DNA of 28,339 bases, from positions 1 to 28,339 of IMG/VR virus record IMGVR_UViG_3300029183_000032; one strand, written 5' to 3'. The notes beneath the pieces were generated by a model. The model was given only the letters and a program-made list of their open reading frames with translations. It was not told where the DNA came from and ran no database searches. A program made the translations under genes and the position numbers. Below are positions 18 through 28,339 of this stretch, in pieces (the first letter of the stretch is position 1; every line of letters starts with the position of its first letter). The stretch comes from a virus (lineage: Duplodnaviria > Caudoviricetes).

Positions 18-18
18 G

Positions 19-3998: not shown

Positions 3999-3999
3999 G

Positions 4000-5176: not shown

Positions 5177-5209
5177 ATCTTATTATGAGAAACTGGAAAG
5201 CCGCAGAAA

Positions 5210-5396: not shown

Positions 5397-6410
5397 CTAG
5401 CTTACCGTAATTACATTCCCCCGGAGAGGCATTGCATTGGTCGCGTTATCCATCACAACGGGCGGATCATCTTCCGAGAATGAAGACATAGCTCCATAGG
5501 CTGTATATAGGGTGACTGTCCCTGTTGGTGTGGCGCTCAATGTAATTGTGATTGTTGTGGCGTTTGTCCGGGCAATTGAGCTTATGGTCATCACCCCGGC
5601 TATAGAGTCTTCAACCCTAAACATCCCTGTTGCCCCTGAAGGTACTGTAATATCGTCCCCATTATCATGTGTGACTGTACAAATAATATCTGCTGTGGAT
5701 TGGGTAGCTGAGAGGATTACAGGGCCGTTTGTGCCTACACTTGGTCCCACTCCGTAGATGGCCTGCACTCTTCTGGCTGCGCGTTGCATGGCTAAATCAT
5801 AACCATCTGCCCCATGTTCTCTGTGAACCGAACCAGTCATATTGAGGTCGTAGCTCTCACACAGAAAATGCAGGAAGGTTTTAGATTCTATTAACTCCCG
5901 GATAGCTTCATTGGCTTGCTGATATCCGCTATCCAGTCCCGATGTATGCCGCCCCAACAGGCCGATAAAAGCCTTATAATCACTGGCGCTCTCGGACTGT
6001 CTCTCATCAAGAAACTCATCAAGGGCGGTTTTGAACTCGGCTTTTGTTATCGTGCTGTCATCAATCTTCTTTGCGTCCTGTTCTGCGCAAAAAATAATAT
6101 CCGCATTGACCGCATTCAAAGAACCGTAATTGTTTGTGATGGCTGTTGTAAGGGAGGTGTAGGCTGATCCCCTTGCATTCAAATCAGGGTCCCAATGGTA
6201 CCCACTTCCACCGTCTGCATTATCGTGAATGGATGCCCCGCCTGTAGCACCGTTGATAATCTGGGAGCTTGTAATGCGATTTAGATTATTGAGAAATACA
6301 GTATGCGCCCCCTCATTGGGGATTCTGGCCGCGTTGGATTGACCAACCAAAACAAAATTCTTTGCTGATGCGGTCCTGTAATCGGTTTTAGAGAGCAAGG
6401 AGGTAGGCAT
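5397..6410 (-). CDS. SGNH / sialate O-acetylesterase-like protein with C-terminal beta-rich domain
   Basis: FVLVGQSNA, GATGGAS and late VH motifs; weak RBS. May be the continuation of the upstream gene. Confidence 0.7.
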   Translation of the reverse strand: MPTSLLSKTDYRTASAKNFVLVGQSNAARIPNEGAHTVFLNNLNRITSSQIINGATGGASIHDNADGGSGYHWDPDLNARGSAYTSLTTAITNNYGSLNAVNADIIFCAEQDAKKIDDSTITKAEFKTALDEFLDERQSESASDYKAFIGLLGRHTSGLDSGYQQANEAIRELIESKTFLHFLCESYDLNMTGSVHREHGADGYDLAMQRAARRVQAIYGVGPSVGTNGPVILSATQSTADIICTVTHDNGDDITVPSGATGMFRVEDSIAGVMTISSIARTNATTITITLSATPTGTVTLYTAYGAMSSFSEDDPPVVMDNATNAMPLRGNVITVS

Positions 6411-7131
6411 GAAGGCTCTCTATCGTTGCTGCATCTAAAACAGATTCATTGATCAATAAAGCTCTGGCATTATGATCACCGCTAAGACCCACCGTAGCTT
6501 TCTTTGTTTCCCATTCTGCATTCTCGGGATCAAAGGATGATATAAGCTCACCATTCTTCCAGATGTCCATATTCTCGCTGTCATGCCATATGAGAGAAAA
6601 GGCCGCATATGAATCTATGCCCGTACCGTCATCAATGTTTACATTGGAGGCCGCTTCATCCCTCTGCCATGCCCATTTAGCAGTAGAGGTGTTGAAGTTT
6701 CCTCTTGAGGCCTGCCACGAAATAAACAATCCGCCATTTGTAACCCTGCGTACAAGAAAGTGAAAAGACTGTCCTTCTGCCCCTGTTAGCTGAGGAATTA
6801 ACCAAGCTGCCTCACCGCCAGGCAGTGTAAAGGTATTAAAGACAATAGCCGATTTACCATCACCGTCATCTGTTGTGTAGTTGGGCCTTAAGAGGCTGTT
6901 GGATTGGGTTATGTCGTTCCCACTTGTAGAAAGGTCCGTCCATGTCTCAACCCTCGTATTGCCATCCAGCTCCACCGTGTCAGATAATCCAAAGAAATAA
7001 ACGTTTTCCGTTGAAAGAGGATCAAACCCTGTTGCTGCTTTATTTAGCCCAAGACCCAAACCAAGACCCATTGCAATCGCAAGGTTGGGGACCAATATAA
7101 GAGCAAATAGTAATACCCTTAAAAACTTCAT
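6388..7131 (-). CDS. Signal-peptide-bearing LamG/concanavalin-like virion-associated protein
   Basis: AAGGAG RBS at ATG 7131; MKFLRVLLFALILVPNLAIA|MGLGLGLGL; V..WTDLS.SGN...Q....RP.Y pattern seen in phage lectin-like domains. Confidence 0.65.
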   Translation of the reverse strand: MKFLRVLLFALILVPNLAIAMGLGLGLGLNKAATGFDPLSTENVYFFGLSDTVELDGNTRVETWTDLSTSGNDITQSNSLLRPNYTTDDGDGKSAIVFNTFTLPGGEAAWLIPQLTGAEGQSFHFLVRRVTNGGLFISWQASRGNFNTSTAKWAWQRDEAASNVNIDDGTGIDSYAAFSLIWHDSENMDIWKNGELISSFDPENAEWETKKATVGLSGDHNARALLINESVLDAATIESLHAYLLAL

Positions 7132-7141
7132 TGTTTTCTCC

Positions 7142-7324
7142 TTAACATCCAATCAATACGCATAAATCCATGAGGGCATCCTTAGCCGCAGGACCGCAAC
7201 TCTCTCCATCTTCAATAATGGCTTCCGTTTGTTCTTTGCTGTATTTAGGAACGGTTTTTTTTGGCAAGCTTTCGCATCCGCTCAGCAAACTCAGCCCAAT
7301 TACGAGGCCGATTAGCCCAAGCAT
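7142..7324 (-). CDS. o-spanin-like lipoprotein (Rz1-like)
   Basis: MLGLIGLVIGLSLLSG|C lipobox; overlaps the 3' end of the i-spanin gene in another frame. Start at 7324 or 7345. Confidence 0.7.
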   Translation of the reverse strand: MLGLIGLVIGLSLLSGCESLPKKTVPKYSKEQTEAIIEDGESCGPAAKDALMDLCVLIGC

Positions 7325-7469
7325 TTGCACTCTTTTTTGCTGCATCACGTTCTCTTTCCGCATGTTCTTTCTTGCTCTCTGCCGCTCCCCAGCGCTTGAT
7401 AGACTTAACAATCCATATAAGGGTTGCTGTCGCGCCAACGCCGAGGAAGGCATAGAGGTAAGAAAGCAT
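7245..7469 (-). CDS. i-spanin-like protein (Rz-like)
   Basis: N-terminal TM helix followed by a charged helical region; located in the lysis cassette. Confidence 0.7.
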   Translation of the reverse strand: MLSYLYAFLGVGATATLIWIVKSIKRWGAAESKKEHAERERDAAKKSANAWANRPRNWAEFAERMRKLAKKNRS

Positions 7470-7651
7470 TATTCAGATTTAAAAACAGGTGAGCTTGTGA
7501 CAGTTCGCAATATAAACATCACAACACTAATACCGCCAGTTACATAAGCTGCATTGTCAGCTGTAAGAAACTCTGTGAAATCAAACGCCTCAAGCGCACT
7601 AACAACAGCAATTGCCAACGCAACCAGAAAAGTTTTCCATCCTTTAATCAT
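7469..7651 (-). CDS. Holin-like protein (2 TM)
   Basis: MIKGWKT start, two hydrophobic segments, LRTVT..PV C-terminus; between the endolysin and spanin genes. Confidence 0.7.
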   Translation of the reverse strand: MIKGWKTFLVALAIAVVSALEAFDFTEFLTADNAAYVTGGISVVMFILRTVTSSPVFKSE

Positions 7652-7652
7652 T

Positions 7653-8102
7653 TCAATCTCCTTTAAAGATGCGCCTCCACCATGGAAGCTTTGGGGGTAT
7701 TGGAGCCTTTGACTCCGGGTTAATAATTTCGAGTGTGAATTTTCTTGGTAAATAATCTCTTAGAACTTCTAATGCTGCCCTTGAGTCCAGAAGAGCAGGA
7801 AACCCGCCTATAGCCCCTATTCCCTCTCCAACCAGAATGCAGCCCTCAATATCGTCTATGACATTTCCCGCATGGATCAGAATTCCGCTGCGTCCCGGCA
7901 CATCCTTTAAGCGCCAAACATTGGAAAATCTCTGAGAATTGTGAGGGACGCATTTATATGTGCCTTCAGGAATGCAGGATATATTTCTATGGTTATCCTT
8001 CCACGGCTCTTCAAGAGTATTACAAAGAGGAACCTGGCCATGAAAAAGAATTCCGAACGTTCCAAACTGTCCAGAGGGTGCGCGGTATAAAGTCAATATC
8101 AT
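7653..8102 (-). CDS. DUF5675-like protein, putative endolysin
   Basis: TLEEPW..N....SCIPEGTY, VPGRSGILIHAGN and EGCILVG motifs; adjacent to holin and spanins. Confidence 0.8.
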   Translation of the reverse strand: MILTLYRAPSGQFGTFGILFHGQVPLCNTLEEPWKDNHRNISCIPEGTYKCVPHNSQRFSNVWRLKDVPGRSGILIHAGNVIDDIEGCILVGEGIGAIGGFPALLDSRAALEVLRDYLPRKFTLEIINPESKAPIPPKLPWWRRIFKGD

Positions 8103-8203
8103 CTTAAAATTTCCAGCATACTCCTGAAGAAATCCCTTACTGGTTTTTTAGGCGTTGGGAACGGGATGATCTCAGCGCCACCATCTTCCTCTTCTTCATC
8201 CAT
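8099..8203 (-). CDS. Possible 34-aa peptide
   Basis: MDEEEEDGGAEIIPFPTPKKPVRDFFRSMLEILR*; overlaps both neighbours (ATGA junction at 8099-8102). Confidence 0.4.
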   Translation of the reverse strand: MDEEEEDGGAEIIPFPTPKKPVRDFFRSMLEILR

Positions 8204-9299: not shown

Positions 9300-9331
9300 G
9301 AAATCACCTGATTGTTATTGAAGATATGTAC

Positions 9332-9688: not shown

Positions 9689-9690
9689 GA

Positions 9691-11259
9691 TTATTTCTCT
9701 ATCCCATACAGTTTGAACTCCCCGGATGTTATGTTCCCTGATGACATGACAAGGCGTACAGCATCAACATCTCCCGTAGAAAGCCTCACCCCTGCACCAT
9801 GCATAACCCGAATGCTATTTGTTGAATCAAGATGACTCATATTGAAATCAAATATCTTCTTAGCCGCTGTGCCAGCAGGATTGAAAAATCTTATGACACC
9901 GCTAAGGCTCTCTCCGGCAGCGCTACCAACTTGATTTGCGAGCAGAATATGTGTTGCCGAACTATCCCCGGATGTAGAGTGAGAACTACTTGAAGCATCG
10001 CTATCCAACCTGTTTGATGCATATCCATAGTCTGATGCCCCTGAATCAAATGATGCTCCGGCATCAGAATCTGTCCGCAGATAAAGGCTTGTATTGTCTG
10101 TTGCAGGAACCAGATCAATAACATGAAGCTCATACTCTTCGTACGTGCTATCAATTCCAGAAGTGAAATCAATTGATGTAGAGTTTGAAGCGGTGGCAGT
10201 GGCTATTTTTGTTAAAGCGCCAGAGCCTCCAACAACCGCTGTCCCGTCTGCTTTTGAATAACTTATGACACGATAATCACCGGAAGCATATTCAACCAAG
10301 ATGGCCTCATCTCCTGCCGCTGTGGTGATATTAGCAGCGCTGGGCAAGATTAAATCTGTAGCATGATGCGTGAGCGTTAGAGCGCCATCAAAATGCAGCC
10401 CTATAACTGTTCCCGGCCCTCCGGTTGTGGCTATACTTGTAATGGTTGTTGTGCCAGTAACATCGAAATAATTACCATCAGTCCCTGGCGTAAGGGCAGT
10501 TGCACTTGCAATGTCAGCCCCTTTGGACCATTGCATTTGAGCGCCGTTCATATCAAAATCACCGCCTGCTTGCGGCGTAGTGTCACTCACAACATCTGTA
10601 AGAAGCCCCAGAGAGGCTTGCGTTACATTTGACCAATCAGTGCCGTTATATCTCAAAAGATCCCCTGAGGCCTCTCCTGAGAGCGTGACATCAAGATTGT
10701 CAGAAAGGCTACCCACAAGAGCAGTTGCGGGGCCAGCGGTTGTGATGGTTAACAATCGGGAGGTTGTGTCTATCGTGCCGGAAATATCGTTGCTGGTGAG
10801 TGTTGTGCCAACCGGGGCCAGAATAGCGCGATCATTCTCCTCACCAACCTGAGAGGCCATCATAGTGACAAGATCAAACTGCTTTTCTGTTACGTCCGCA
10901 GGATTGCCATCAAAATTTGAAAAATCCGTTCCTTGCGTATAAGGAACGATCCTTTGAATAACAATGGCTGCATCTGTGGCCGGAGCAGTTACAAATGTAA
11001 CCGTTCCCCCTGCACCAACGCCCTCACCAGCTACCGTGTAGTGTGTTGTGATTGTCTGGGTTGTCCCATCAACCTTAACAACCAGATGATCCTCATCATA
11101 AAAGAGATAAGGGAAGGAAAACTCAGTTGTAGAATTATCGCCTGTATAGGTAATGGTGTTTGTTGCGCTCGTAACCGTAGCCAGAGCGGGTGCGTACACA
11201 CTTACAGTCGCCATTAAAAAAGCCGCTATTAAAGCGGCATTCAAAAGAAATTTTCTCAT
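9691..11259 (-). CDS. Tail fibre protein (T7 gp17-like N-terminal anchor) preceded by a signal peptide
   Basis: TVTS...YTGDNSTTEFSFPY...L.V.VDG...YTV.G...GGTVTF..AP....I.I.R...Q...E..FD...M..Q anchor pattern; DTTPQ.GG and KGADIASA modules; leader MRKFLLNAALIAAFLMATVSVYAPALA. Confidence 0.85.
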   Translation of the reverse strand: MRKFLLNAALIAAFLMATVSVYAPALATVTSATNTITYTGDNSTTEFSFPYLFYDEDHLVVKVDGTTQTITTHYTVAGEGVGAGGTVTFVTAPATDAAIVIQRIVPYTQGTDFSNFDGNPADVTEKQFDLVTMMASQVGEENDRAILAPVGTTLTSNDISGTIDTTSRLLTITTAGPATALVGSLSDNLDVTLSGEASGDLLRYNGTDWSNVTQASLGLLTDVVSDTTPQAGGDFDMNGAQMQWSKGADIASATALTPGTDGNYFDVTGTTTITSIATTGGPGTVIGLHFDGALTLTHHATDLILPSAANITTAAGDEAILVEYASGDYRVISYSKADGTAVVGGSGALTKIATATASNSTSIDFTSGIDSTYEEYELHVIDLVPATDNTSLYLRTDSDAGASFDSGASDYGYASNRLDSDASSSSHSTSGDSSATHILLANQVGSAAGESLSGVIRFFNPAGTAAKKIFDFNMSHLDSTNSIRVMHGAGVRLSTGDVDAVRLVMSSGNITSGEFKLYGIEK

Positions 11260-11263
11260 TGAT

Positions 11264-14200
11264 TTAGTTTCCTATATTCTCAGTGAACCATTCATTAGCT
11301 GTTTTGGCAGTTTCCAAAATCTGATCTCCAAACTCCGAAAGCTGCTCCACCTTTTCTTCAGAACTCATTGCCGGATCTTCATAAATACGATCTGATAATT
11401 TACCCACTGTGCGGATGCGGTCATAAAATGCCTTCATGGGCTTATGCGCCCTTAATATTTCTGCATTTTCTTCTAGGTAGTCCGCTCTCTCATCACCCTC
11501 AAGCTTTCTGGATGTGGCGTGGATCTCATTAACTTTTTTCCATGTATCAAAGAAATTGGACACCGAAACGGCCCTGTATCCGGTTGGCTCCCTCACGGAG
11601 AACGCTTTAACGATAGGGATATCCGCAGGCGTAACTGGCTCCTCAGGAATCTCTTCGCCGTTCCACTTCTTTACTTCTTTTATGATCTTGTCACCAGCAT
11701 CAGTGACATAGTTCGCAGAACCCGCTAGCGAGCCGCGTAGAGTATTATCAACAAGAGCAGGAGATACACCAAGGGTCCGACCGATTTGTACAGCAGTTTC
11801 GGAAGTAAATTTGTTTTTTCTTTGTTCCGGCTCATATCTGTCCATCCATTCGGGGTAAACATTGCGTCCCGTGAAGAAATTGTAGTTTGTCAGATCCTCA
11901 ATTATTACCTTAACCAAAGGCGGAAGTACAGCGCTTGGGTCATAAACAGGGCTGATCGTACCAACAACGCCTAATACCAGCTCTTCCCAAAAATCTTTAA
12001 TCTCAGGCTTATCACCTTCAAAACCCCACGTCATAAACCTTTCCGGCACACTTCCAAAGATATACCCGAATGAGAAAGGCTTGGGTATTCTGCGCCATTG
12101 GCCGTCCTCTTTAAAAATCCAAAATAGATCTTTTTGCCACTGCGGTATCTCTAGATATTCCTGACGCTCTTCTTCCGGCGCTCCATAGAGATAATACCCG
12201 GTCAACATCACACTAGGGATTGTTACCGTTGCCATACCCCAAAACATAGTCCCGGCAGGATTTTCTTTGAAAGTACGAGCCAGCTTATCAACTGATTGTA
12301 CGCCAGCATTAAAGAAGGGTACATACTGGTTTATCTGTTTGGCAACTGGCCCACCCCGCGCAAAATCCAGTGTTGCCTCCCTTGAAAGCAATGCTGCTTC
12401 CATTCCCACTACACCTTGCTCTCTGGCCTTCTTGAAAACACCTACGCGCGTCCCTTGCTCAAGAGCCATGCTGATATCATTTAATGCCTTCAATGGCCCC
12501 ATAATCGGGTTTCTTAGATATTTCGCCATTTTCCCGCGTGGCCGAAATAGCTCCTTATAGGCCTTCTCAAGACCCTTATCATCCAGATCCATATAGGAGT
12601 TGAATGAGCCGCCATTACGCATCCACTCATGATAAAGCTCAGTCTTTCCTATAACCGCTGCCAGTCCCTGTACCATATCGATAGGTGTCGGGCGAACAGG
12701 CGATTGAAGCAAAGCTGTACCCTGATCTCGGATCACGTTTCTAATCCAGAACTCAGGTATGATTGTTGCGCCTGCTCTCAGCAATCTTGCTGAAAACTGA
12801 AACGGCGACATGATAATTCTAAATGTGGCATTCAGTTGAACTGGGCTTAAGTTTTTAACGGCTTCCTGAAGGGGCTTAGAGACTTTGTAAAATTCCCTTT
12901 TCCCATCACGAAATACTGTTACAGAACCTCTTGGCGTTATACCCGGCGGAAAACTACCCTCCATCTTTTGAATGTAGTCTGGCATCACACCTTCAAGATC
13001 CGCCAAACCCTTCGCTACTCTGTTTCTCCAAGCAAGATCAATAATCTTTGCAGTGTTGGCGATAACAGAATGCGTGGTGGTCTTGATGTCCTTATCAGAA
13101 CCTTGGATCTTCTTAATGACCTTATTCGCGTTGGCGTTTGTAAACACGCCCTTTGATGTTACGAAATCCTTAAACTCATCCTCAATGACCCGTTGGAAAG
13201 GAATGTAATTCGGGTTTAGCTCCAATATCTCGTTATAGCGCTCCTCAGACAGCACTTGCGCATCAACCAGATTAAACAACACCCGGCGCTGATAGTCATA
13301 CATCTCCTGAGCAAATGTGTCGAACCAAGTAAAATCCTCACCGTATTTATCAGCAAGTCTGGCCATATCCTCCGTGGCTTTAAGCAAAGCTTTTTCAGAT
13401 ACCTTTACATCCTCACGATCCTGAAGATCCTCAATCGTTCTGCGCGCGATCAGATAGTCATTAAAATCTGTCTCTCTGGCATCACGCTTTCCTTCTACAT
13501 GAGCTACAGAATTATCAAAGTCATCCAGTATGGATTTCATGGCTTTGCCAGTCACTTCCATAGCGCCAGTCTCAGGATTCAGCTTCGTTGTGCCGATCTG
13601 AAGATTATGCTCAATATTCCCTATAACGCCTGCATATGTCCTTGAGATAAGGAATGGGTTTTTACCAGGATCGATGCTTAGGCCACGCTCCTCAGCTAAC
13701 TTTGTTGCGTCTTCAATAGGCTGAAGGCTGTTTATAAACTCCCGGTAAAACTGATTAAACGCACTTTCTTCGTCATTGATCTCAGGCGCATCCTGCTCAA
13801 TTGCCGCCTGCATCTGCGAACCTGATACAGAGGGGGCAAACTCAAGCGCACCATCTTTCTGAGTTGGCAATTCCTTCTCCACGAAAGCCTGTTGCTCCGT
13901 GGCGCTCATATTATCAACCGCTTCTCTTGCGGCCTGAGCGCTGCCTGTCTTCTCCAACATAAGATTAAAAGCGATATCAGCAGATGTTTTCACGCCCCCG
14001 GCAATTGAAATAATCCCAGCCTCAATCAAAAGCTGGTCTTTAGAGGGCGTTATCGCATCCAGATAACCATCAAAGGTAAAATCTTGCTCAGTTGAAAGAT
14101 CGAGCGTTGCATGCAAGATATCAGCAACCCTTTCTTCCCCAAGCTCTTCAAGCATCCCGTTCCATCCGGCCGCACTAAATACTTTTGATACCCGCGCATT

Positions 14201-17146: not shown

Positions 17147-17574
17147 TAATTAATCCTTCCATATAAATAACCAGTCGCACCGTCAAACCAGTAATGAGGC
17201 ATGCCCTCAGGTGTCTCTAGCGTCATACCAAGCATAAGCGCCCATCTGTGCTGTGCCGGGACATCCCGTGTAATGCACTCGATACGCTTTGCTTTTATTC
17301 TGTCGAATTCCTTTTTCACCGCCCGATGGATAGGAACCATATTGCGAGCGGTAATTTTCTTACCCAATAAAGACCAAACAACCGCCTTATGCTCTTCAGG
17401 AAACACAAAGCCAGCACAGCCAATGCACTCGCCATCCTCTAAGGCCGACCAACACGGGCCAGCCAGACTTAAAGACCTCCCATATTCTGGGGTAAGATGC
17501 TCTTCCATAAAGAGCTGATCTTCCTGCAATACAAGGGCTTCCAGATGCAGCGACAAAAAAGGAACTACCTTCAT
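17146..17574 (-). CDS. GNAT-fold acetyltransferase-like protein (gp13-equivalent position)
   Basis: IGCAG, RIEC and HRWA..LG...E motifs; follows the nozzle gene. Confidence 0.7.
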   Translation of the reverse strand: MKVVPFLSLHLEALVLQEDQLFMEEHLTPEYGRSLSLAGPCWSALEDGECIGCAGFVFPEEHKAVVWSLLGKKITARNMVPIHRAVKKEFDRIKAKRIECITRDVPAQHRWALMLGMTLETPEGMPHYWFDGATGYLYGRIN

Positions 17575-19718: not shown

Positions 19719-20265
19719 TCCAAGCGTCCTCCGGTAATGGTGTAGGTGGATTTTCTAGCGCATCAGCCGTGAAAGCTGTTGAGACAGCAAATTGGAAATC
19801 TTTGAGAGCGGCTTCTTTTTTGGTGTTGGATTGCGTAATAGGCTCCGCAGCTTCATAGGCCATCTTTGAAGCAAACGCTTCCTCAAACAAAGGGGAAAAT
19901 TCAGCCTCATCCGTAACTTGCTTGATATAGCGAATTTTAAGCGGCGTTCCCTCATCTGTATGAATGTAACCGCCTCTCACCCGGTAATCAGGGTCATCTT
20001 TAATAGCCAAGAGAGCCAAGCAATCATTTGGCAATAAGTAACGATTATCATAACCCCATTCAGGCGCTGTCCCATCAACAGCAATAGAATCCAATTCTAT
20101 AGCAAAATTCCAGGGGTAGGATTGCAGCAAGGCATCACGAACACTGTCATACATCTCATTCAAAGTCCTTGCGGGCTTCGTATTCGTTGTCTCAACGTTT
20201 GCAACGCGAGGCTCACCAAGTTTGGCAAGCGCCCGGTTACAGATGCTCGTTTTATTAGATGCCAT
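19702..20265 (-). CDS. Tail tubular protein A / adaptor (T7 gp11-like)
   Basis: ICNRALAKLG, RDALL...PWNFA and Y.LP.DCL motifs. Confidence 0.88.
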   Translation of the reverse strand: MASNKTSICNRALAKLGEPRVANVETTNTKPARTLNEMYDSVRDALLQSYPWNFAIELDSIAVDGTAPEWGYDNRYLLPNDCLALLAIKDDPDYRVRGGYIHTDEGTPLKIRYIKQVTDEAEFSPLFEEAFASKMAYEAAEPITQSNTKKEAALKDFQFAVSTAFTADALENPPTPLPEDAWIDARA

Positions 20266-20276
20266 GCTGCTTTATC

Positions 20277-20771
20277 CTATTCCATATACTGGATTTGCCC
20301 GGTTACTGTACCGTCGGCAGTCGTGCCAGTGTCCGTGGTTAGGGAGATATAAAGATCCCCATAAGCAGGACGGGCAGACAGCCCAGCAAGTTCCCAAGCG
20401 GATTGTTTAGCTGTGTTAATGTCAGGAGCGCTAAAGCGATATTCAGTCAATCCTACAGCAGCAGCATTAACATCAATATTATTAGCAATAGCGTCTGCAT
20501 CAACAGCAGTGTAGGTTCCATCAGCATTCTTGGTGTAGAAGCCAATATCAACCGTTCCTGCCGTGCCGAGATCATCAAATGCGAATTTAACACTCAGCAA
20601 TACAGCATCAATCGGAACACGGAAAACGTGAGCAATGTCACCATTCGCCGTATCGGTTAGTTCAAACGTATCAACCGCTCCTTTGACAACCCCACCGTGC
20701 AAACGGGAAGGCACAACGTCAGGAGGAGTAGCATCAAAGTCAGTAATGTGTGACCCTTTTTGAGTAGCCAT
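20277..20771 (-). CDS. Capsid-associated / decoration-like protein
   Basis: Beta-rich 164 aa directly after the capsid gene; strong AGGAGG RBS. Confidence 0.6.
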   Translation of the reverse strand: MATQKGSHITDFDATPPDVVPSRLHGGVVKGAVDTFELTDTANGDIAHVFRVPIDAVLLSVKFAFDDLGTAGTVDIGFYTKNADGTYTAVDADAIANNIDVNAAAVGLTEYRFSAPDINTAKQSAWELAGLSARPAYGDLYISLTTDTGTTADGTVTGQIQYME

Positions 20772-20782
20772 GATCTCCTCCT

Positions 20783-21682
20783 TTAGCTTTCAGAACACTT
20801 GATTTCGACACACTTGGCTTCCTCAAGACGTGTGTAGCCAGTGTTCATAGTGGCCTCCACGTAATCAGGATTACCTTGCAAGTCGGAACGTTTACGGACT
20901 TCCCCTTTGATGGTTTGCCACACACCGCGCCCCATGCCGGACTTAACCCACACAGGCAAGCGCCTATAAGAGTTTGTATCCGTTGGAAGACGGTTAGAAA
21001 TGTGGAAATTCATCCCGAGGAACCTACGAACAAAACCATCCTCAAGAACGGGTCTGTCACCGGGAGCAAGATTGAAATCCGTAGATACAATCTGCGTTAG
21101 TGCCAGAAGCTCATCATGCTGGAATGGAGCAATACCGATATGAATTTCTTCATTGTCGGCATCAACATCGCCTTCCAGTAAGATTTTCTGAGCGTTCCGT
21201 AATTTAGGAATGTTCAGTCCGGTTGCGCTACCCGGCCCCACAGTCACAGCCACTTGTTGAGCAGCAGGGAATGTGGTTGAAGTACCGCCTGTCTCACCTG
21301 TCATTGCTGTACCGAAAAATGCTTCTGTAAACAGATCGTCACTTTTACGGTTAAGCGCAGCAACAGCCGAGCGCACATATGCACCTTGCGGCGCAATGTT
21401 TGTTTGAAGTAGGTCAATGTCATCAACGACCTTGCCCCAATCAAACGTTCTTGGGTAAACCCAGCGACCATCATGAGTTACATCAATATTGACGGCTGGC
21501 TTTGCCCGTTCAGTCCGTTCAACAGCTTCGGTAGAATCTACCTGAGATGTCATACGGAATGCTTTACTTCCAGCAGCATCCTGCTCCATGACGAAATTCG
21601 CCAATACAGGGGCCATTTGCTGTGCAAGTAGATCGAGGTTTTCAGAGTATTTCTGAGTCCTCAGAGCTTCGATATCTGCCAT
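20783..21682 (-). CDS. Major capsid protein
   Basis: LLAQQ, AALNRK.D, F.G.A.TG..G.T, RFLGMNF..SNRL and G.TRLEE.K.V.I.C.E motifs; GGAGG RBS before ATG 21682; follows the scaffold gene. Confidence 0.9.
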   Translation of the reverse strand: MADIEALRTQKYSENLDLLAQQMAPVLANFVMEQDAAGSKAFRMTSQVDSTEAVERTERAKPAVNIDVTHDGRWVYPRTFDWGKVVDDIDLLQTNIAPQGAYVRSAVAALNRKSDDLFTEAFFGTAMTGETGGTSTTFPAAQQVAVTVGPGSATGLNIPKLRNAQKILLEGDVDADNEEIHIGIAPFQHDELLALTQIVSTDFNLAPGDRPVLEDGFVRRFLGMNFHISNRLPTDTNSYRRLPVWVKSGMGRGVWQTIKGEVRKRSDLQGNPDYVEATMNTGYTRLEEAKCVEIKCSES

Positions 21683-21687
21683 GATAT

Positions 21688-21857
21688 CCTCCACAGTTTA
21701 GGTTGAAACTGCGGCTTTGCTTGTCACTCAGAACGAGTGGGCGAGTCCTGCATGTATGACGCTCATGCTAGTGCGATAGTCTTTCCTATTGTCAGCCGGG
21801 GTCTTTCGACTTGCCCGGACCTAAGCCCTCACGCGGATATCCACGCAAGGTACTCTG
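21688..21857 (-). promoter_or_regulatory. Structured leader upstream of the capsid gene
   Basis: Series of hairpins on the - strand, including CCGGG-CAA-GTC-GAAA-GAC-CCCGG, GCATG/CATGC, CACTC/GAGTG, and CAGTTT/AAACTG next to the RBS. Confidence 0.45.
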
Positions 21858-22754
21858 TTATGTGCCAAAAATAACTTGGTTAAGGGCTTCCATGCGCTTG
21901 TAATCAACGCCCTTACCTTCGTTATAAGCTCTCAATCGATCCTTATTTGATGGATCTTTAAGTTCTTCCTTTAGCTGTGCTTTCTCAGCTTTGGCCTGTT
22001 CTGGTGAGAAGCCGTAAGGACGAACCCCATCACCGGAATCATGCACCTTGTCTTCTCCAATTTGTTCACCGAGATTGGCAAACATCTTGAGCATATTTGC
22101 TGTACCAATGGCTTGTTCAATTTTATTAAGGGCCTCTTCCTTGTCCACGCCCTCAGGTAATCCGGCCCGCACAGTCCTGCGGCCTAGCTCTTCACGCTCT
22201 GCATAAGCGCTGCCCCACTCTTTCTTTAAAGCTTCAAGCTGCCCGGATTGCTCAATTTCAAGCTGTTTGGCGGATTCTTCTATGATAGCCCCCTCATATT
22301 CCATGGTGGCTGAAATCATTGCGTCACGTTGCGCCTGATTTAAGCCAAGGCCATGCGCCATTTTTGTAGCAAACTCCATACGGCCCGTGTCTACAGCCGC
22401 GCCTTCAGGAACTTCAAACTCTGCATAATCCTCTGGTTTTTCGGGCCTTCCCAATCGGGTATAAACCTCATCCAAGGCGCCTGCCTCAGTTATATCTTTC
22501 GGTAATTTTATGAGCTGGTCTGCTGGAACGCCCTGGAACTTCTCAAGTTCTTGATAGGCTGTCAGTGCTTTAAGGGGGTCATCCCATCCCTTATTTTGCA
22601 CAAATCCTTTCTGCTCATCTGTCACGCCTTCAACGTCATACCAAGCTTTCGCTTCGTTTTCGTTTTCGTTTCCGGCTCCGTTTTCTGCACTTTGGCCTTG
22701 TCCGGGATCTGCTTGTCCTGAATCTTCAGGGGCTGCGGGGGCTGCTTCAGTCAT
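21858..22754 (-). CDS. Capsid scaffolding/assembly protein
   Basis: Acidic flexible N-terminus; RLGRPEKPEDY, GLNQAQ, LKKEWG and GED motifs; GAGGAGG RBS before ATG 22754. Confidence 0.8.
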   Translation of the reverse strand: MTEAAPAAPEDSGQADPGQGQSAENGAGNENENEAKAWYDVEGVTDEQKGFVQNKGWDDPLKALTAYQELEKFQGVPADQLIKLPKDITEAGALDEVYTRLGRPEKPEDYAEFEVPEGAAVDTGRMEFATKMAHGLGLNQAQRDAMISATMEYEGAIIEESAKQLEIEQSGQLEALKKEWGSAYAEREELGRRTVRAGLPEGVDKEEALNKIEQAIGTANMLKMFANLGEQIGEDKVHDSGDGVRPYGFSPEQAKAEKAQLKEELKDPSNKDRLRAYNEGKGVDYKRMEALNQVIFGT

Positions 22755-22998
22755 AATCGTAGTCCTCCTCGTAGTTGTAATATTCGTCGAAATCGACATT
22801 CATAAAATTGGCGATCCGTAAAAATACTTCACGCCGCCCTTCCATACGGGCCATCTCTAATGGGTCCGTAGAGAAATTCGTCCTTGTTGGATTACAAAAG
22901 GTTCGCAAATCTGCCAGCACCACCTTGCCGGACTCATCACCCAAAGCGAGGCGATAATCTGTCTGCTTCCTTCGCAGAAGCTTAAATGGGCCGCTCAT
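22747..22998 (-). CDS. Conserved small head-module protein (Bbp19-like)
   Basis: G..VLADL..FC and A..EGRREV..RI pattern; between portal and scaffold. Confidence 0.7.
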   Translation of the reverse strand: MSGPFKLLRRKQTDYRLALGDESGKVVLADLRTFCNPTRTNFSTDPLEMARMEGRREVFLRIANFMNVDFDEYYNYEEDYDYD

Positions 22999-23498
22999 TA
23001 CTTCTTCTTTTTCTTGGATTTCTTGGCTGCTTTTGCGACCTCTTCCTCAACCTCTTTTGCAGCCTCGGCCTCTATGCTTTCGGCTGATTTCTTGGCGCGG
23101 AGCTTGCGCTTAGCCTCATCCTTGGCCATCTTTTTGGCTCTGGCTTCACGAATAGCCTCATTTTTAGCTTCTTCTTCAGCGGCTTTTTTCTCTTTATCAG
23201 CCTTAGCTTTTGCGACTTGTGCAGCCTCAGCTTCAACCCTTTTGGCACGCTCATCTTCTCTTTTCTGAGTGGATGTCCTGTATGGTTCACCGCTTGGAGT
23301 TTGAGAACGACGAATGGCAAACAGCATTTCAACAGTGGCATCAACACCGCCATTGCGATTGATCTCTTCCTGAATGACAGATTCCATGTCGCACTTGGAC
23401 CATTTTTCGCCCTTAAGCTTCATGATGACAATCTGAAATGCGTCCGTGACATCGAAGCCGTATTGGTTACAGTCTCCAAAAGTGTGTAAAGGTGTCAT
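22998..23498 (-). CDS. Hypothetical protein with long Lys/Ala/Glu helical tail
   Basis: GGAG RBS; coupled at both ends; ends KKSKKKKK. Confidence 0.75.
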   Translation of the reverse strand: MTPLHTFGDCNQYGFDVTDAFQIVIMKLKGEKWSKCDMESVIQEEINRNGGVDATVEMLFAIRRSQTPSGEPYRTSTQKREDERAKRVEAEAAQVAKAKADKEKKAAEEEAKNEAIREARAKKMAKDEAKRKLRAKKSAESIEAEAAKEVEEEVAKAAKKSKKKKK

Positions 23499-23641
23499 GA
23501 TAATTTCTCCAATATTTTGTTTAAAAGAAATAGCTGCTTTATATTTGCAACATCGTAATGCTCTATAGGTCTGCGCTTATCTTCAGGCACTCCCTCTAAA
23601 TACCAATCCAGCGCCTGTTGTTTTAATGCGTCAAACTTCAT
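23495..23641 (-). CDS. Small hypothetical protein (48 aa)
   Basis: TAAGGA RBS; MKFDALKQQALDWYLEGVPEDKRRPIEHYDVANIKQLFLLNKILEKLS*; ATGA coupling. Confidence 0.6.
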   Translation of the reverse strand: MKFDALKQQALDWYLEGVPEDKRRPIEHYDVANIKQLFLLNKILEKLS

Positions 23642-23651
23642 GGTCGTATCC

Positions 23652-25280
23652 TTATTGGTTAAATGATTGAGCCTGCGCGATATCCTTGATTGAACTGGCT
23701 ACAGATGGAGCAGCCTCGACAGCCGCTGCAAGCTCTTGTTGCTGCTGTCTTCCATTGCGGATTGCCTCTTTCTGCTCATCTGAAAGGAATAATCTTGAAG
23801 GTGCGCCGTTCGCATCCCCGATAATGTCTATGTATTCATCCAGATCGAAGTTATCCATGATGGTCGGATCAAGCTCTACAAGCGGGATTGCTGCATCGAT
23901 TGTCCGTTGTGTGGCAAGCGCTTCTTCCGATTTCTGCATTCTGTTCAAAGGTGAGGTGTATTCGATCTCTATCTCTCCCCCCGCCTCTCTCAGAATATCA
24001 GGCATCGGTAATGCACCGTCCTCATCAAACACGCCGTTAAAGTCCAGAATATCAATCTCGCGCTCAATCATTGGCCCAAGAGCTTCTGATTGCTGCCTGC
24101 CCATTGTTGGCGAGAGTAGCGCTCCTTTTTCCTGTGCGCGTTGTAAAACCTCTGTGGCTGTCATTGAGGGGCTTTCAACAAGGATCTGAAATAAAGTTAC
24201 AAGGAATGTGTCATTAATCACTTCCCTTGATTGCTCAATCACATCGTTTGATAAGCTGCCTTTGTAATTATTCTCAAATGGTTTGGCCCTAAAGTTCCCA
24301 TTATCATCCAAAGCGCCATAATTGATATGCCTTGGCTTCATGTGCATCTTGCGCACAGCAAGCTCATCAGACGCTGCAATTGGTGGGTCAATCGCCATAT
24401 GCCGCGCTCTCAAATCACTCTTGCGCATGGCATTGAGCATCTTAATCTCTGCCAATGCTGTCATAGCTGGTGAGCGCCCATAAACCTCACAAGGCGCTGT
24501 CACATAACGCGAGACAATAAACGGGAATGTACGGAAATATCCCGTTCCCAATAATCTGCGCCCCTCAACACTCACATGCGTTGAAATAAACTTCCAATGT
24601 CTCGGAGTGCGCGAACCCTCGATATAGTCAGGATTAAGCTTCACACACTGGATAAACCAGAATTTTTGCGATGGGTTCTTTTCAAGAGCATTCAATATGG
24701 CTTGTGGCAGATCCGCACTGGGAAACTTTTGCCTTGCCTGAAACGCTGTCAGCCTGTATTTCCGGTAATCTGTCTCAATCAGGCCGTTGGAGTTTTCAAG
24801 AAAGTGATGCTCCGATAGGTGAGAAGATTTATAGCGCGTTCCCATCCCAGGAATATCTTCAAGCACCAAGACCCCAGTACCAAAGGCCCCCAGTGACATG
24901 TAATTCTCATGCTGCTGAGAGGCAAAATTAGCTTTAGGCCTGTATCTGAGCGAAAAGAGTACATCAGTCAGATCATCCAAAAAGGTTGTGACCTCATGAT
25001 TTTCATTCAGATCCTTATCCGAAGTTCTCAGCTTGTGCCATTGTGATGACCGAGGCGTAAGAATAGATTCCATTGCCGCAGAAAACCGCTCAAGCGCGAG
25101 TGAAGCCGTATCATCATATTTCTTTGAGTTACGCTTCTCGCCCTGCCGTTTCTCCTGCGAAAAGAAATCGTCCTGCCTTGTCAGAACAAGAGGCGCTACC
25201 TCAGCCCAATGATCTTCAAATGTCGAGCGTTCACGGGCTAATGAGTCCGTGACATCAATAATCTCAGTGGCTGTTTCCAT
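23652..25280 (-). CDS. Portal / head-to-tail connector
   Basis: 542 aa; AFGTG, EVYGRSPA, MTATEV..R..E....L.P..GR.Q.E.LGPMIER and IEYTSPL motifs. Confidence 0.92.
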   Translation of the reverse strand: METATEIIDVTDSLARERSTFEDHWAEVAPLVLTRQDDFFSQEKRQGEKRNSKKYDDTASLALERFSAAMESILTPRSSQWHKLRTSDKDLNENHEVTTFLDDLTDVLFSLRYRPKANFASQQHENYMSLGAFGTGVLVLEDIPGMGTRYKSSHLSEHHFLENSNGLIETDYRKYRLTAFQARQKFPSADLPQAILNALEKNPSQKFWFIQCVKLNPDYIEGSRTPRHWKFISTHVSVEGRRLLGTGYFRTFPFIVSRYVTAPCEVYGRSPAMTALAEIKMLNAMRKSDLRARHMAIDPPIAASDELAVRKMHMKPRHINYGALDDNGNFRAKPFENNYKGSLSNDVIEQSREVINDTFLVTLFQILVESPSMTATEVLQRAQEKGALLSPTMGRQQSEALGPMIEREIDILDFNGVFDEDGALPMPDILREAGGEIEIEYTSPLNRMQKSEEALATQRTIDAAIPLVELDPTIMDNFDLDEYIDIIGDANGAPSRLFLSDEQKEAIRNGRQQQQELAAAVEAAPSVASSIKDIAQAQSFNQ

Positions 25281-25510
25281 TAACCACCTAACAATTTCTT
25301 AGTGGCCAGTCCGCTTGAATCATCACCCTGTACACCCTGCGCACCCGTCAGGATTGTTGCGCCTCTTCCCTGCTGGCTGGCTATTTTCTGGCGCTGTTTC
25401 TTTTTGGTTTCGCTGCCTTCTTTATTCACATCCTCAGGCTTTGGTGGTGGCTTAGGCGGTGGTGGTAACTTAGGCTTGTCGGGTTTTATAATCTTTCCAA
25501 TAGATCCCAT
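25280..25510 (-). CDS. Small Pro/Lys-rich virion protein upstream of the portal
   Basis: AAGGAGG RBS before ATG 25510; PPPP, GR.ATILTG..G and KKLLGG pattern. Confidence 0.75.
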   Translation of the reverse strand: MGSIGKIIKPDKPKLPPPPKPPPKPEDVNKEGSETKKKQRQKIASQQGRGATILTGAQGVQGDDSSGLATKKLLGG

Positions 25511-25520
25511 AAGGGCCTCC

Positions 25521-27074
25521 TTAATGTGCGAACTCGTCGTAATCTGTTTCTGCCGATTGCGGCTGTGGTGGTAAATGTTGGTGCCCACCAATCATTTCCA
25601 TCTTGCGGTCTTTGTCTCCCATAGCGAATGTACGGAAAGCGTCCGAGCCGTTGGAAGCAGTGTTGTGTAGCGGTTTGTCCTGAAAGCCGGAGCCTTCAAC
25701 CCATTTCTTACGGTATGCGCTCAGATGCTTGATCCCTTCAGAGCATCCAGCCTCATCAAATGTGCAGCGCTTTAACGTTGGTCGGCATTGATTTCGGATG
25801 TCTGTAAAAACATCCTTTGTCCTTGTAACGATTGATATGGGCCTTATGCCGACCTTTTGCGCTTCTTTCTTCGCGCTCGTTACCTCTCCGGCCATAATTC
25901 TTGTTGTGCCATCATGCGGTAAATTATGATGGTTGTAGGTATATCCTAGGCTTGTGAGATACTGCGCGTAATGCGCCCATCCCTCATCAGCGCATTCGTA
26001 GTAATGAATAAATCTGTATTCAAGGCCGATATGCTGCATGAACCAGATAGCGGTTTCATCATTTAAACCCAGATCCCACCATGTCGAGACAGGCAGACTT
26101 GGCTCGTAAGGGAAATAACCAATGCGCTTGTTCTTGCGCAGATACGCTATTTCCTTTGTGTAGATACAGCCTTCCATTGAGGCTTCGAAAGCTTCCTCCG
26201 GCGTGGAAGGAAACTCTCGCTTCATCAATTCGCCTTGCAGCGCTTCTTTCTTGATGTACCACGCTTTTTGTCCGGGCGTTAACTCTATTCCATGCTCGAT
26301 CATAAGCTTGTGGAAATACTCAGCCATCTCCTTTGTGACAACCGTATTATCACAATCTTCTTGGCCCAGTGTATAGCCTTCATGCTCAAACCACGGATAG
26401 AAATGGAACTTCGGGTCCATGGCTGTCATGTGAGAGCCTGAATCCTGAAGAGCGCGAGCAGTTTGGACCAGATCAAAGAACTCCCCGGACTGTCCTTCTG
26501 CCGTAGATTCAACAAATATCAACTGGCCAGCATGAACCGCATTCAACGCACCGGATTTAATTTCTGCCGCTTTATCCGGGTGTCTGGCTGCAATCTTCCC
26601 ATATTCGGAAATATGCAGAATTTGCAGCGTATCCCCTCTGTGTGAGGTTCCGGCACCAATTCCTGAGCCAGTAGAAAATTCTATTTCCTCTGTGCTTTCC
26701 TTGGTCTGCGTGATGTCAGCCCGGACATAATCAGGCAAATTGTCATACGCATACTGTATCTTTGCCAGCTTCTTCTTCGCATCAGGCAGTGTTGCGTCAA
26801 TAATCCCGCATTTCTGGTTCTCATTGAACAAACACGCATCAAGCATGTAGATACAGATAAACGTAGAAAACCCAAGCTGACGGGCCTTCAGGATAACATT
26901 GAAGTACCACATCTCTTCATAAAACCTGTCCTGAACACCGCTGCCCCAGTCAGTTTTAAACAACACCTTGTCGCCAGCATCGTTTTTTACATGATAGAGA
27001 TTATTCAGTCGCCAGTGCTTGTCACCCAGCTTTTCCGTCAATATCTGGAAGTCCTTTTGTTTGTCCCGTGACAT
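25521..27074 (-). CDS. terL: Terminase large subunit
   Basis: Walker A LKARQLGFST, Walker B LHISE, coupling motif EST, nuclease motifs WDLG..D, LPHD and DAFR. Confidence 0.95.
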   Translation of the reverse strand: MSRDKQKDFQILTEKLGDKHWRLNNLYHVKNDAGDKVLFKTDWGSGVQDRFYEEMWYFNVILKARQLGFSTFICIYMLDACLFNENQKCGIIDATLPDAKKKLAKIQYAYDNLPDYVRADITQTKESTEEIEFSTGSGIGAGTSHRGDTLQILHISEYGKIAARHPDKAAEIKSGALNAVHAGQLIFVESTAEGQSGEFFDLVQTARALQDSGSHMTAMDPKFHFYPWFEHEGYTLGQEDCDNTVVTKEMAEYFHKLMIEHGIELTPGQKAWYIKKEALQGELMKREFPSTPEEAFEASMEGCIYTKEIAYLRKNKRIGYFPYEPSLPVSTWWDLGLNDETAIWFMQHIGLEYRFIHYYECADEGWAHYAQYLTSLGYTYNHHNLPHDGTTRIMAGEVTSAKKEAQKVGIRPISIVTRTKDVFTDIRNQCRPTLKRCTFDEAGCSEGIKHLSAYRKKWVEGSGFQDKPLHNTASNGSDAFRTFAMGDKDRKMEMIGGHQHLPPQPQSAETDYDEFAH

Positions 27075-27321
27075 GTCTTATGGCCTGTGTTACTAAGTTT
27101 TCGCCTTCAGCATCAAAATCAATAGACAAACCAAGCACAGCCAAATCAGGCAGAGATTTCTTGAGAAGGATCTCCGCTGCCCGGATTTGCGTGGTTTTCA
27201 TCTTGTTTTTACCAAGCACATGATCTTGCAAGGCATTCAGGAGCATACTCGTCTGTATTTTCTCCCTTGTTTTTTCGTCCCAAGGGCGATCTTTGGTACC
27301 CTTGTTTTTACGTGCCGCCAT
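27022..27321 (-). CDS. Terminase small subunit (putative)
   Basis: REKIQ...L...L..H......M..TQIRAAEILL.K.LPDL pattern; directly upstream of terL. Confidence 0.7.
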   Translation of the reverse strand: MAARKNKGTKDRPWDEKTREKIQTSMLLNALQDHVLGKNKMKTTQIRAAEILLKKSLPDLAVLGLSIDFDAEGENLVTQAIRHVTGQTKGLPDIDGKAG

Positions 27322-28004
27322 TAGCTTGCAGTCGTTAGGGTAATCCCGCCATCTGCGTTAGCCTGACCGTTGATGTACCAGCTTGTCCCATCACTGATCA
27401 TTTCGACATAATCGCCTACAACCGCAACACCATCTGCAAAAGTGATGGTATCTGCGTTGGTGTCATAGGGGCCATCATCATTTGTATCAACTTCAAGCTC
27501 GTTAATACCGCCAATAATCACATTGCCGCTTGAGTCTGTAACGACTGTGTAAGAGGCACTAGCTGGCGCGGCCTTGACGACGAATTTGAAATAGCATCCT
27601 GCGGTTGGTGCCGGAAGCGTAGACACAAATTCTGTTGCAGAATTGAGCGTCATTGTCTTGCCGCATTCGGCTGTGGTCAGGGTATTGGTGGCCGTTACAT
27701 CTTCAAAATTCGCTGAAATATCAGCAGCATTATTGATTTCAGTCGCTGTGGCTGTAACACCGTCGAGAATGTTAAGCTCTGCGGCTGTTGACGTTACGCC
27801 GAAGTTTGCATTGAGATCATCCGCGCCAACTTTTTTGAACTCGTCAGCACTGGCATCGTACCTGACCAGAAAATCAGCGGATGCGGCGGCGGTTGTGTCT
27901 TCCGTAAGCTCGTCAACGCTCTTGTGCGTCAGGTCGTAACCATCCGCATAAGCTGGGAATGCAAGCGTTACAAACGCAGCAATCGTGAGTAAATATTTTA
28001 ACAT
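27321..28004 (-). CDS. Signal-peptide-bearing, fibre/spike-like beta-rich protein
   Basis: AAGGA RBS; MLKYLLTIAAFVTLAFPAYA|DGY; AAELNILDGVTATATEIN fibre repeat; TLPAP..G..F.F and SDGT.WY motifs. Confidence 0.75.
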   Translation of the reverse strand: MLKYLLTIAAFVTLAFPAYADGYDLTHKSVDELTEDTTAAASADFLVRYDASADEFKKVGADDLNANFGVTSTAAELNILDGVTATATEINNAADISANFEDVTATNTLTTAECGKTMTLNSATEFVSTLPAPTAGCYFKFVVKAAPASASYTVVTDSSGNVIIGGINELEVDTNDDGPYDTNADTITFADGVAVVGDYVEMISDGTSWYINGQANADGGITLTTAS

Positions 28005-28313: not shown

Positions 28314-28339
28314 GACCTTGACCTCATCGGCTGCAAACG

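Follow-up and report, generated by a model that had tools for sequence, protein, structure and literature searches.

Tailed phages are usually viewed as completing their particles in the cytoplasm before lysis, and the tail parts of T7 are made and assembled there. The locus analysed here raises the question of whether some tailed phages instead export their outer virion parts and, if so, where the particle would be completed. The window, the whole stretch of DNA that was analysed, comprises 28,339 nt of the ~39-kb genome of an uncultured temperate podophage of the Carin-1/HTVC010P type, with ~11 kb of that genome lying outside it. Its gene order, adaptor–nozzle–GNAT–ejection–fibre, is that of T7/Carin-1-type tails, and all four genes for leader-bearing proteins are on the minus strand (Table 1). 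No tRNA gene was found within the window, a promoter scan of it gave results at chance level, and no RNA holder was listed.

Table 1. Features of the window relevant to the leaders, particle assembly, lysis and integration
Feature	Coordinates	Strand	Basis
Tyrosine integrase	3895..5037	+	phrog_1 E 8e-36, PF00589
attP core = 3′ half of tRNA-Lys(TTT)	5205..5254	-	match to host-order genomes
Leaderless 337-aa tail-accessory ORF	5397..6410	-	phrog_4201 tail fibre E 4e-4
Laminin-G/ConA-like lectin-fold protein, 20-aa leader (7072-7131)	6388..7131	-	ESM Atlas feature and structure look-alikes
Likely lysis cassette	7142..8102	-	roles from layout; hydrophobic segments, lipobox
Tail fibre, T7 gp17-type docking domain after 27-aa leader (11179-11259), no Cys	9691..11259	-	PF03906 E 1e-7, residues 33-109
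Three ejection/internal proteins and GNAT-like protein, leaderless	11264..17574	-	phrog_418, phrog_9854, phrog_4177
Tail nozzle, T7 gp12/Carin-1 type, 714 aa including 19-aa leader	17571..19715	-	phrog_376 E 2e-179
Nozzle Cys700, predicted disulfide partner of Cys641	17616..17618	-	covariation
Nozzle Cys641, leader-bearing nozzles only	17793..17795	-	4/291 aligned homologues; 0/97 leaderless in A3
Nozzle Sec/SPI-like leader	19659..19715	-	first 14 nt overlap adaptor 3′ end
Head-tail adaptor, gp11 type, leaderless	19702..20265	-	phrog_394 E 6e-50, PF17212
Head and packaging module: decoration, major capsid, scaffold, Bbp19-like, portal, terminases, without leaders	20277..27321	-	profile matches and leader rule
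Likely capsid spike, 20-aa leader (27945-28004), Cys114 and Cys137	27321..28004	-	knob fold match
5′-open ORF, probable fifth exported protein	28029..28339	-	F-A-A-D-E-V at window edge, like leader end

A first-pass annotation had assigned leaders to four late proteins: the nozzle, the tail fibre, the lectin-like protein and the protein that starts at 28004. This was borne out. Each begins with K or R within the first five residues, followed by a hydrophobic core and an A-x-A site, so all four display the Sec/SPI hallmarks (basic n-region, hydrophobic h-region and A-x-A) by our own n/h/c rule, which was used for leader calls rather than SignalP. The best 10-residue Kyte-Doolittle mean is 2.5-3.1 in the leader cores and ≤1.75 in the terminase, portal, scaffold, capsid, decoration, adaptor, GNAT and ejection proteins; together with the n/h/c rule, this agrees with the earlier observation that head, portal, adaptor and ejection proteins have no leader. 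Purine-rich SD-like motifs (GGAGGA, AGGA, AAGGAG and AAAGGA) are located 5′ of the four leader starts, where ribosome-binding sites had been reported. The nozzle start had been placed at 19718; the leader holds, but its ATG is at 19715 and 19718 is a TTG one codon earlier. The other three leaders open with an ATG at 11259 (fibre), 7131 (lectin-like protein) and 28004. Nozzle records exist in both 714- and 715-aa forms. Among 27 window ORFs, the rule was positive for the four leaders and for two more: the o-spanin, which has a lipobox, and the holin, a false positive. Applied to homologues in relatives' loci, it flagged 0/84 portal, 0/100 capsid, 0/17 decoration, 1/50 scaffold and 7/167 adaptor proteins, and the one of the seven adaptor positives that was inspected (L018) was a false positive. 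Against these rates, four positives among four outer parts are well beyond chance. Tat export was ruled out, as none of the four leaders contains RR, and so was lipoprotein (SPII) export, as a lipobox with +1 Cys is present only in the o-spanin.

The A-x-A sites coincide with the first residues of leaderless homologues. Moreover, leader sequences have changed more quickly than the mature chains, yet A-x-A is kept in all of them: identity to the window's leader is 58-74% for nozzles and 41-59% for fibres, compared to 73-88% and 62-85%, respectively, over the next 113 residues. Translation from a start downstream of the leader had been named as an observation that would count against export. Codon inspection ruled out internal starts, as the mature N-terminus codons of the nozzle (GTC), fibre (ACG) and 28004 protein (GAT) are not start codons, and the ATG at that position of the lectin (7071) has no SD. 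The leaders are also the only hydrophobic segments in the four proteins, with no internal transmembrane segment. An origin of the leaders in chance extension, mis-called start codons or faulty assembly would draw on the false positives of our rule (the holin and the 7/167 adaptors), but the four leaders are mutually unrelated and each is preserved across homologues drawn from Logan, ENA and JGI data, and positions 9000-28339 show zero letter differences across four runs; we regard this explanation as barely credible. Among the homologues listed, leaders were counted in 88-89/120 spikes, 9/34 fibres having the docking domain and 4/120 nozzles, the other 116 nozzles being without a hydrophobic leader.

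The nozzle model (AF2 pLDDT 93, with 57-58 in the leader) matched the Carin-1 nozzle 8ck1_A with a Foldseek TM of 0.88 (E 9e-58) and T7 gp12 with a TM of 0.62-0.64. PHROG profile matches to the nozzle start at residue 25, and full-length leaderless nozzles typically start M-V/T/P-R/K-A, in register with the first residue past the AWA site. All four nozzles with a leader fall in a single 100*-supported clade, nested among leaderless clades and with ≤65% identity to its sisters; a grouping of three clade nozzles with the distant leader-bearing L242 nozzle was rejected (p-AU 0.006). Thus, judged from the tree, the nozzle leader is a recent gain, a single event on one branch, and nozzle branch lengths are not raised. 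A pair of cysteines was gained on the same branch. Cys641 and Cys700, the sole mature-chain cysteines of the four leader-bearing nozzles, occur together in 4/291 homologues, exactly those four. Contact of the two sites was judged by covariation, in which they rank 1 of 13,861, and this rank holds after removal of all 36 Cys-bearing rows (255 homologues Cys-free at both sites). Because the sites show top covariation even among Cys-free homologues, Cys641-Cys700 is likely a new disulfide. Counting against this reading, Cys700 is already present in 32 leaderless nozzles, and virion cysteines could air-oxidise after lysis.

PHROG profile matches to the fibre begin at residue 28, the first after the A-x-A site, and leaderless fibres begin M-T at that site. 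Its leader contains R-K-x-F-L in some homologues, not in P0129 or P0134, and in P0127 a related leader has been kept on a fibre whose body clusters with leaderless ones.

The 28004 protein had been described as fibre-like, which was not upheld: it folds like a capsid spike. Its modelled C-terminal knob resembles those of Pa223 gp52 and the T4 gp9-gp10 domains (VIA Z 10.8, rmsd 2.4 over 98 residues of 9ny6_C), although the score is tied by a KP1 baseplate chain (Z 11.5). As the knob fold is also found in baseplate and tailspike proteins, we infer the capsid location; homologues often directly follow capsid genes (L204, L206, L211 and L213), with the same fold ties to baseplate/tailspike domains. 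On this modelling the protein is likely a capsid spike rather than a tail fibre. No relatives were matched among 50,697 phage records. Among 120 homologues listed, 88 have both leader and Cys pair, 1 the leader only, 28 neither and 3 the pair only, and these last three look 5′-truncated. A Fisher test of the leader against the Cys pair gave p 7e-23, which was set aside because the rows are non-independent; on the tree, the association goes back to a single event (1 independent pair). The spike Cys positions show no covariation (rank 1424 of 8001 once Cys rows were removed, with ~29 effective sequences). The gene in the spike slot of L200 begins M-A-D-G-Y-D-L, with no leader. The adjacent ORF at the window edge probably carries a leader cut by the window end, and its homologues in L200/L201 begin M-A-N-E-V, again leaderless.

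It had been proposed that head and tail parts are divided by compartment. This division is inexact, because the spike, a head appendage, also carries a leader. L308, a syntenic locus with 60% portal identity, has a leader on its spike and none on its nozzle, ruling out an all-or-none switch. Leader co-occurrence in sister phages is suggested by P0002 and P0124, which are both listed with a contig of 16,053 bases, and scans of viral, metagenome and genome collections found no loci of leader-bearing sister phages. In this lineage, recruitment of parts appears to have proceeded outside-in: spike, then fibre, then nozzle.

For the lectin-like protein, a LamG annotation is present on a minority of its look-alikes in the ESM Atlas, and relatives' genes in this slot have a leaderless start and a similar Gly-Leu run. 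The downstream ORF lies in the +1 frame, shares 23 nt with the end of the lectin gene and has an N-terminal motif that we take to be esterase-like. Neither protein has relatives in IMG/VR, and the ORF product has none among cultured phages and does not resemble the L161 fused gene. A frameshift from the lectin might bring about its export.

We examined whether the leader-bearing proteins might no longer be virion parts, but belong to a defective prophage or a secreted module serving the host. The likely host order does carry a domesticated, leaderless podophage-type tail cluster, so domestication occurs in such a setting. However, the gene sets for packaging, ejection, lysis and integration are complete, the ~39-kb contig was recovered from four aquatic runs, at depths of 93-1200, in a single study that is perhaps the origin of the sequence, and the nozzle retains its Carin-1-like fold and unraised branch lengths, making this very improbable. 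The attP core is 100% identical over 48-50 nt in 9/301 genomes of G001's order, and the sequence match points to a host in the order of Micavibrio. DsbB was found in 5/5 candidate host genomes, and a search of 320 genomes from the probable host's order, at E ≤ 1e-70, found no locus of the sister phages. The likely lysis cassette comprises a leaderless DUF5675 endolysin candidate (PF18925), a 60-aa two-helix holin, an i-spanin and an overlapping lipoprotein o-spanin (ATG 7345). The layout and signals of the holin and spanin candidates fit canonical lysis, and no family match names them as such.

Together, site register, leader divergence and the nozzle Cys pair support the proposed export of nozzle, fibre and appendages, and Sec export with cleavage of the leader-bearing parts is highly probable. 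As the leaders lie on outer parts and the new nozzle cysteines at predicted contacting sites, periplasmic maturation is likely. In the route that we favour, on balance, the host Sec pathway would export the nozzle, fibre, likely spike and lectin-like protein; leader removal would restore ancestral N-termini, folding would occur in the periplasm and host DsbA/DsbB may form the disulfide. The DNA-filled head and adaptor would stay in the cytoplasm behind a closed portal valve until holin holes or lysis mixed the compartments and the outer parts joined the head. Given export, completion is probable in the brief interval that separates holin triggering from spanin action, or right after the burst. 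Canonical holins form micron-scale holes and spanins act last (PMC6116005), and the T7 portal valve is proposed to retain DNA until tail parts dock (PMC6702177). The same source proposes that adaptor binding reopens that valve, so a nozzle-free cytoplasmic adaptor risks DNA loss, which counts against the route. The hexameric nozzle would also have to be added fast and at useful yield.

Leaky export, in which virions use a cytoplasmic fraction while the exported fraction serves as a decoy, masks the receptor or blocks superinfection, would sidestep the DNA-leak problem, and a leader as disordered as the low model pLDDT suggests is perhaps tolerated. Yet a leaderless form of the nozzle, fibre or spike would lack a start codon at its mature N-terminus, the nozzle is a poor decoy and its new Cys pair would be left unexplained. 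Moreover, the N-termini are docking segments; residues 2-41 anchor the Pa223 spike (bioRxiv 10.1101/2025.06.11.659172). We consider such dual localisation unlikely. Assembly across the membrane, with exported or tethered nozzle and fibres at the periplasmic face, heads docking inside and release perhaps partly non-lytic, would account for an efficient meeting of the DNA-sealing hexamer and head, and has a precedent in Ff pIII. Against it, the window has no extra membrane or secretin-like gene, the leaders are the sole hydrophobic segments, and leaderless sisters share the gene order. The tethering raised by the first-pass annotation is disfavoured by the short leaders, conserved A-x-A sites and particle-docking mature N-termini, and an unusual egress route by the intact holin/endolysin/spanin-type cassette; this reading, too, is improbable.

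Compared to known systems, the locus shares with T7/Carin-1 tails a gp12-fold beta-propeller nozzle, a gp11-type adaptor (phrog_394/PF17212) and a gp17-type docking domain (PF03906), and differs in the leaders on nozzle and fibre and the new Cys pair. Its cultured kin, the Pelagibacter phage HTVC010P group and Ralstonia DU_RP_II, have nozzle identities of about 39-44%, and matches to the 25 nozzles listed begin at query residue 14-25, outside the leader core. With Pa223 gp52 the spike shares the C-terminal knob and, presumably, N-terminal capsid attachment; 'signal peptide' and 'disulfide' each occur 0 times in the main text of that paper. Ff pIII is a virion end-cap, added last, whose signal sequence is needed for incorporation (PMC2246268). 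However, pIII has a membrane anchor, and its ssDNA phage leaves the cell by extrusion and not by lysis; the parts here are predicted soluble and belong to a dsDNA tailed phage that has a terminase, a portal and a lysis cassette. Sec export of a tailed-phage late protein that is put to work at holin triggering is known from signal-peptide and SAR endolysins (fOg44 Lys44, phage 21; PMC6116005); there lysis enzymes are exported, while here the endolysin candidate is leaderless and structural parts bear the leaders. An abstract-level literature search, with most subscription journals outside its coverage, turned up no description of a tailed phage that exports its nozzle or fibre.

Export might bring one of three gains: the nozzle would be out of reach of sensors in the cytoplasm (Avs13, for example), it would not cross-assemble with the likely host's resident tail cluster, or parts would be stabilised by disulfides. 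A broader proposal, that tailed phages can shift the DNA-sealing tail core out of the cytoplasm within a few evolutionary steps and that such split-compartment morphogenesis has evolved repeatedly, with periplasm-folded, disulfide-locked nozzles capping filled heads across or through the holin-breached membrane and thereby evading Avs13 or the resident cluster, is tentative, at somewhat under an even chance. The lineage is a useful test case because leaderless same-order sisters at 55-65% identity and a spike-only intermediate are available, and because the change amounts to a 57-nt leader and one or two substitutions giving the Cys pair. If the nozzle is exported, infectivity would arise only after membrane breach, morphogenesis would be tied to lysis timing and the phage would have a new means of evading cytoplasmic immunity.

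The four leaders proposed in the first-pass annotation, each with an SD-like motif and an A-x-A site, were borne out in the sequence, with the nozzle start corrected to the ATG at 19715. Leaders were called by a custom rule of this analysis rather than by SignalP. Among the 27 window ORFs, this rule flagged the nozzle, tail fibre, lectin-like protein and likely capsid spike, together with the holin and the lipoprotein spanin. Applied to homologues in retrieved loci, it called a leader on none of 84 portals or 100 capsids, on one of 50 scaffolds and on 7 of 167 adaptors. Four assemblies of one study, possibly the source of the window, agree in every letter over positions 9000 to 28339; the one gap, of a single base at 16279, is not near any leader. 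Contigs carrying the same proteins reach 39,280 bases, and a 39,151-base contig of one run contains the window stretch, with ∼11 kb extending past its right end. ORF and profile annotation placed the late operon of this podophage on the minus strand. Among cultured phages, the Pelagibacter HTVC010P group and Ralstonia DU_RP_II have the closest nozzles (∼39 to 44%), and comparison of the nozzle model with Carin-1 gave a TM of 0.88.

Features of the window and of related loci (L) and bacterial genomes (G, with contigs C)
Feature	Position	Strand	Observation
Late operon, first half		−	small accessory genes, terminases, portal, scaffold, major capsid, decoration, adaptor, nozzle
Late operon, second half		−	GNAT-like protein, three ejection proteins, fibre, phosphoesterase, lysis cassette, lectin-fold gene, further tail-accessory gene
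Integrase		+	final gene on this strand
Likely capsid spike, start	28004	−	leader
Tail fibre, start	11259	−	leader
Lectin-like protein, start	7131	−	leader
HTH + metallophosphoesterase gene (phrog_704)	8196–9299	−	between fibre and lysis cassette
Lectin ORF/next ORF overlap	6388–6410		23 nt, +1 frame, at short CT repeat; weak SD at downstream ATG
3′ half of tRNA-Lys(TTT) (attP core)	5205–5254
Two exact 12-nt direct repeats	5146–5176		19 nt apart, adjoining attP core
Pentapeptide-type repeats	1–411	+	in 5′-open ORF
Leader-bearing spike family, long-tailed-type phages	L204:6956–7570; L221:9350–10603; L264:9722–10381		after capsid genes; adjoining core genes leaderless
Distant podophage	L242:8369–16597		leaders on spike-family protein, several accessory genes and nozzle; adaptor without
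Split nozzle-like sequence	L151:785–3606; L158:245–1157		divided among successive ORFs (109 aa, 502 aa, 327+ aa); a separate secretion-type leader on every one
attP-identical tRNA-Lys halves	G088:C47:3–50; G088:C28:5–52; G170:C41:1–48		at contig ends
tRNA-Lys match	L339 (G297)		60 nt, 93%, extends beyond tRNA end
Compact leaderless cluster, Micavibrio-like bacteria	G014:C1 ∼597,000–607,000 (L303); G008:C3 (L305); G016:C7 (L306); L286–L298		among housekeeping genes; portal, scaffold, capsid, adaptor, nozzle, small ejection protein, fibre, terminase-like gene

Sequence comparison indicates that the leaders are additions at the ancestral protein start. The search found 2879 nozzle homologues; of the 120 listed, four carry a leader, at 77 to 100% identity; the remaining 116 (≤65% identity), about ten of which look 5′-truncated, have none, and full-length leaderless nozzles start where the mature chain of the window nozzle starts. 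The fibre docking domain was present in 34 of 120 listed matches, 9 of these 34 with a leader. Leader sequences are more variable than the mature chains, with the A-x-A retained. Both nozzle and fibre are leaderless in the fully syntenic relatives L161, L170, L172 to L176 and L081, as is the spike-slot gene in L200 and L081.

In the fibre tree (30 rows, 165 columns), six leader-bearing members form a clade. The nozzle clade (100*) comprises the four leader-bearing proteins and lies within starred leaderless clades (top 45 of 101 aligned rows; second tree, 44 rows). Leaders also occur on the distant nozzles of L242, L151 and L158; a single group of three of the four leader-bearing nozzles plus L242 was rejected (p-AU 0.006, in a 16-row tree with a long-branch caveat). 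We take the gain of the nozzle leader to be recent and separate. In the listed fibre homologue P0127, a related leader sits on a body that clusters with the leaderless fibres, which would fit a swap of the body with retention of the leader. In the related locus L308, the leader is confined to the spike. This pattern, together with the trees and the breadth of each leader, suggests that leaders were recruited outside-in.

Mature leader-bearing nozzles (n = 4) contain exactly two cysteines, at 641 and 700; the 97 leaderless nozzles average 3.3, with an odd count in 53. Among 291 homologous C-terminal domains, only those four have Cys at both positions, 32 others having Cys at 700 alone and 0 at 641 alone. 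Of 13,861 position pairs, 641–700 covaries most strongly, even with all 36 Cys-bearing rows removed; in the nozzle model, one of these two residues ends a long strand and the other begins a second. The Cys-free covariation and strand positions thus make it likely that Cys641–Cys700 is a disulfide between contacting residues, gained with the leader. Of the spike-family members, 88 have both the leader and the Cys114/Cys137 pair, 1 has the leader alone, 3 have the pair alone and 28 have neither; leader and pair map to a single change on the tree (three truncated rows dropped). Cys-free spike rows gave no covariation support for a Cys114/Cys137 contact. The window fibre and lectin have zero Cys.

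The C-terminal domain of the 28004 protein is about equally like the Pa223 capsid-spike knob, T4 gp10-like baseplate domains and CBA120 TSP4, and, in several phage types, its homologues frequently come after capsid genes. We read the protein, initially called fibre-like, as a putative head spike. The proposed compartment split holds insofar as outer parts bear leaders and the core does not; since the spike would be a head part, the dividing line probably runs between core and outer parts and not between head and tail.

The nozzle, fibre, spike and lectin-like protein are very probably exported, and the full route, in which these parts join the head at holin action or lysis, is somewhat favoured. 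Outer parts would pass through Sec export, signal-peptidase cleavage and periplasmic folding, with heads, portal, adaptor and ejection proteins remaining in the cytoplasm. A fusion linked by frameshifting, or one split only recently, could account for the lectin/next-ORF junction; in either case the second domain would also be exported. Absence of a leader from the endolysin candidate implies a large-hole holin. Such holins are described as making micron-scale holes, with spanins last to act (PMC6116005); this would leave an interval between holin and spanin action for periplasmic parts to meet filled heads inside the outer membrane. Alternatively, joining would immediately follow the burst. 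The chief difficulty for split assembly is DNA retention. For T7, the proposal is that the portal valve closes on terminase departure and is reopened by adaptor binding, with the nozzle sealing afterwards (PMC6702177); with a valve of this type, adaptor and nozzle would therefore need to add together, late. Candidate benefits of export are evasion of Avs13, which directly binds tail nozzles in the cell (PMC13581612), avoidance of cross-assembly with the host's resident cluster, or disulfide stability. Immune evasion would be partial, because capsid, portal and adaptor would still be exposed, and these are sensed by other Avs families.

Among 301 genomes of the order that includes G001, labelled Micavibrio, 9 match the window tRNA-Lys half at 100% over 48 to 50 nt, which points to this order as the host; in a sample across the class, to which the search was confined, 1 of 251 genomes matched at E ≤ 1e-13, at 93%. 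We take this order to be Micavibrionales, Alphaproteobacteria; NCBI places Micavibrio in Bdellovibrionota. The contig-end halves in G088 and G170 and the G297 match may be integration sites of related elements, and the 12-nt repeats are possible integrase arm sites. DsbB was found in all five candidate hosts checked and a resident leaderless nozzle-like gene in four of the five; 13 of 15 genomes of G001's family have a nozzle-like match. The resident cluster resembles a domesticated podophage or a GTA-like element of Micavibrio-like bacteria; a search of titles and abstracts found no description of it.

The titles and abstracts searched likewise yielded no description of exported nozzles or fibres in tailed phages. 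The tail is a structurally ordinary member of the Carin-1/T7 type, differing in that it is not leaderless. Its exported parts would work partly like Ff pIII (PMC2246268), although the phage is not an Ff-type system. At this locus, a shallow, datable leader gain comes with leaderless sisters and one intermediate; the locus also provides a disulfide signal at contact level and a lead to the host.
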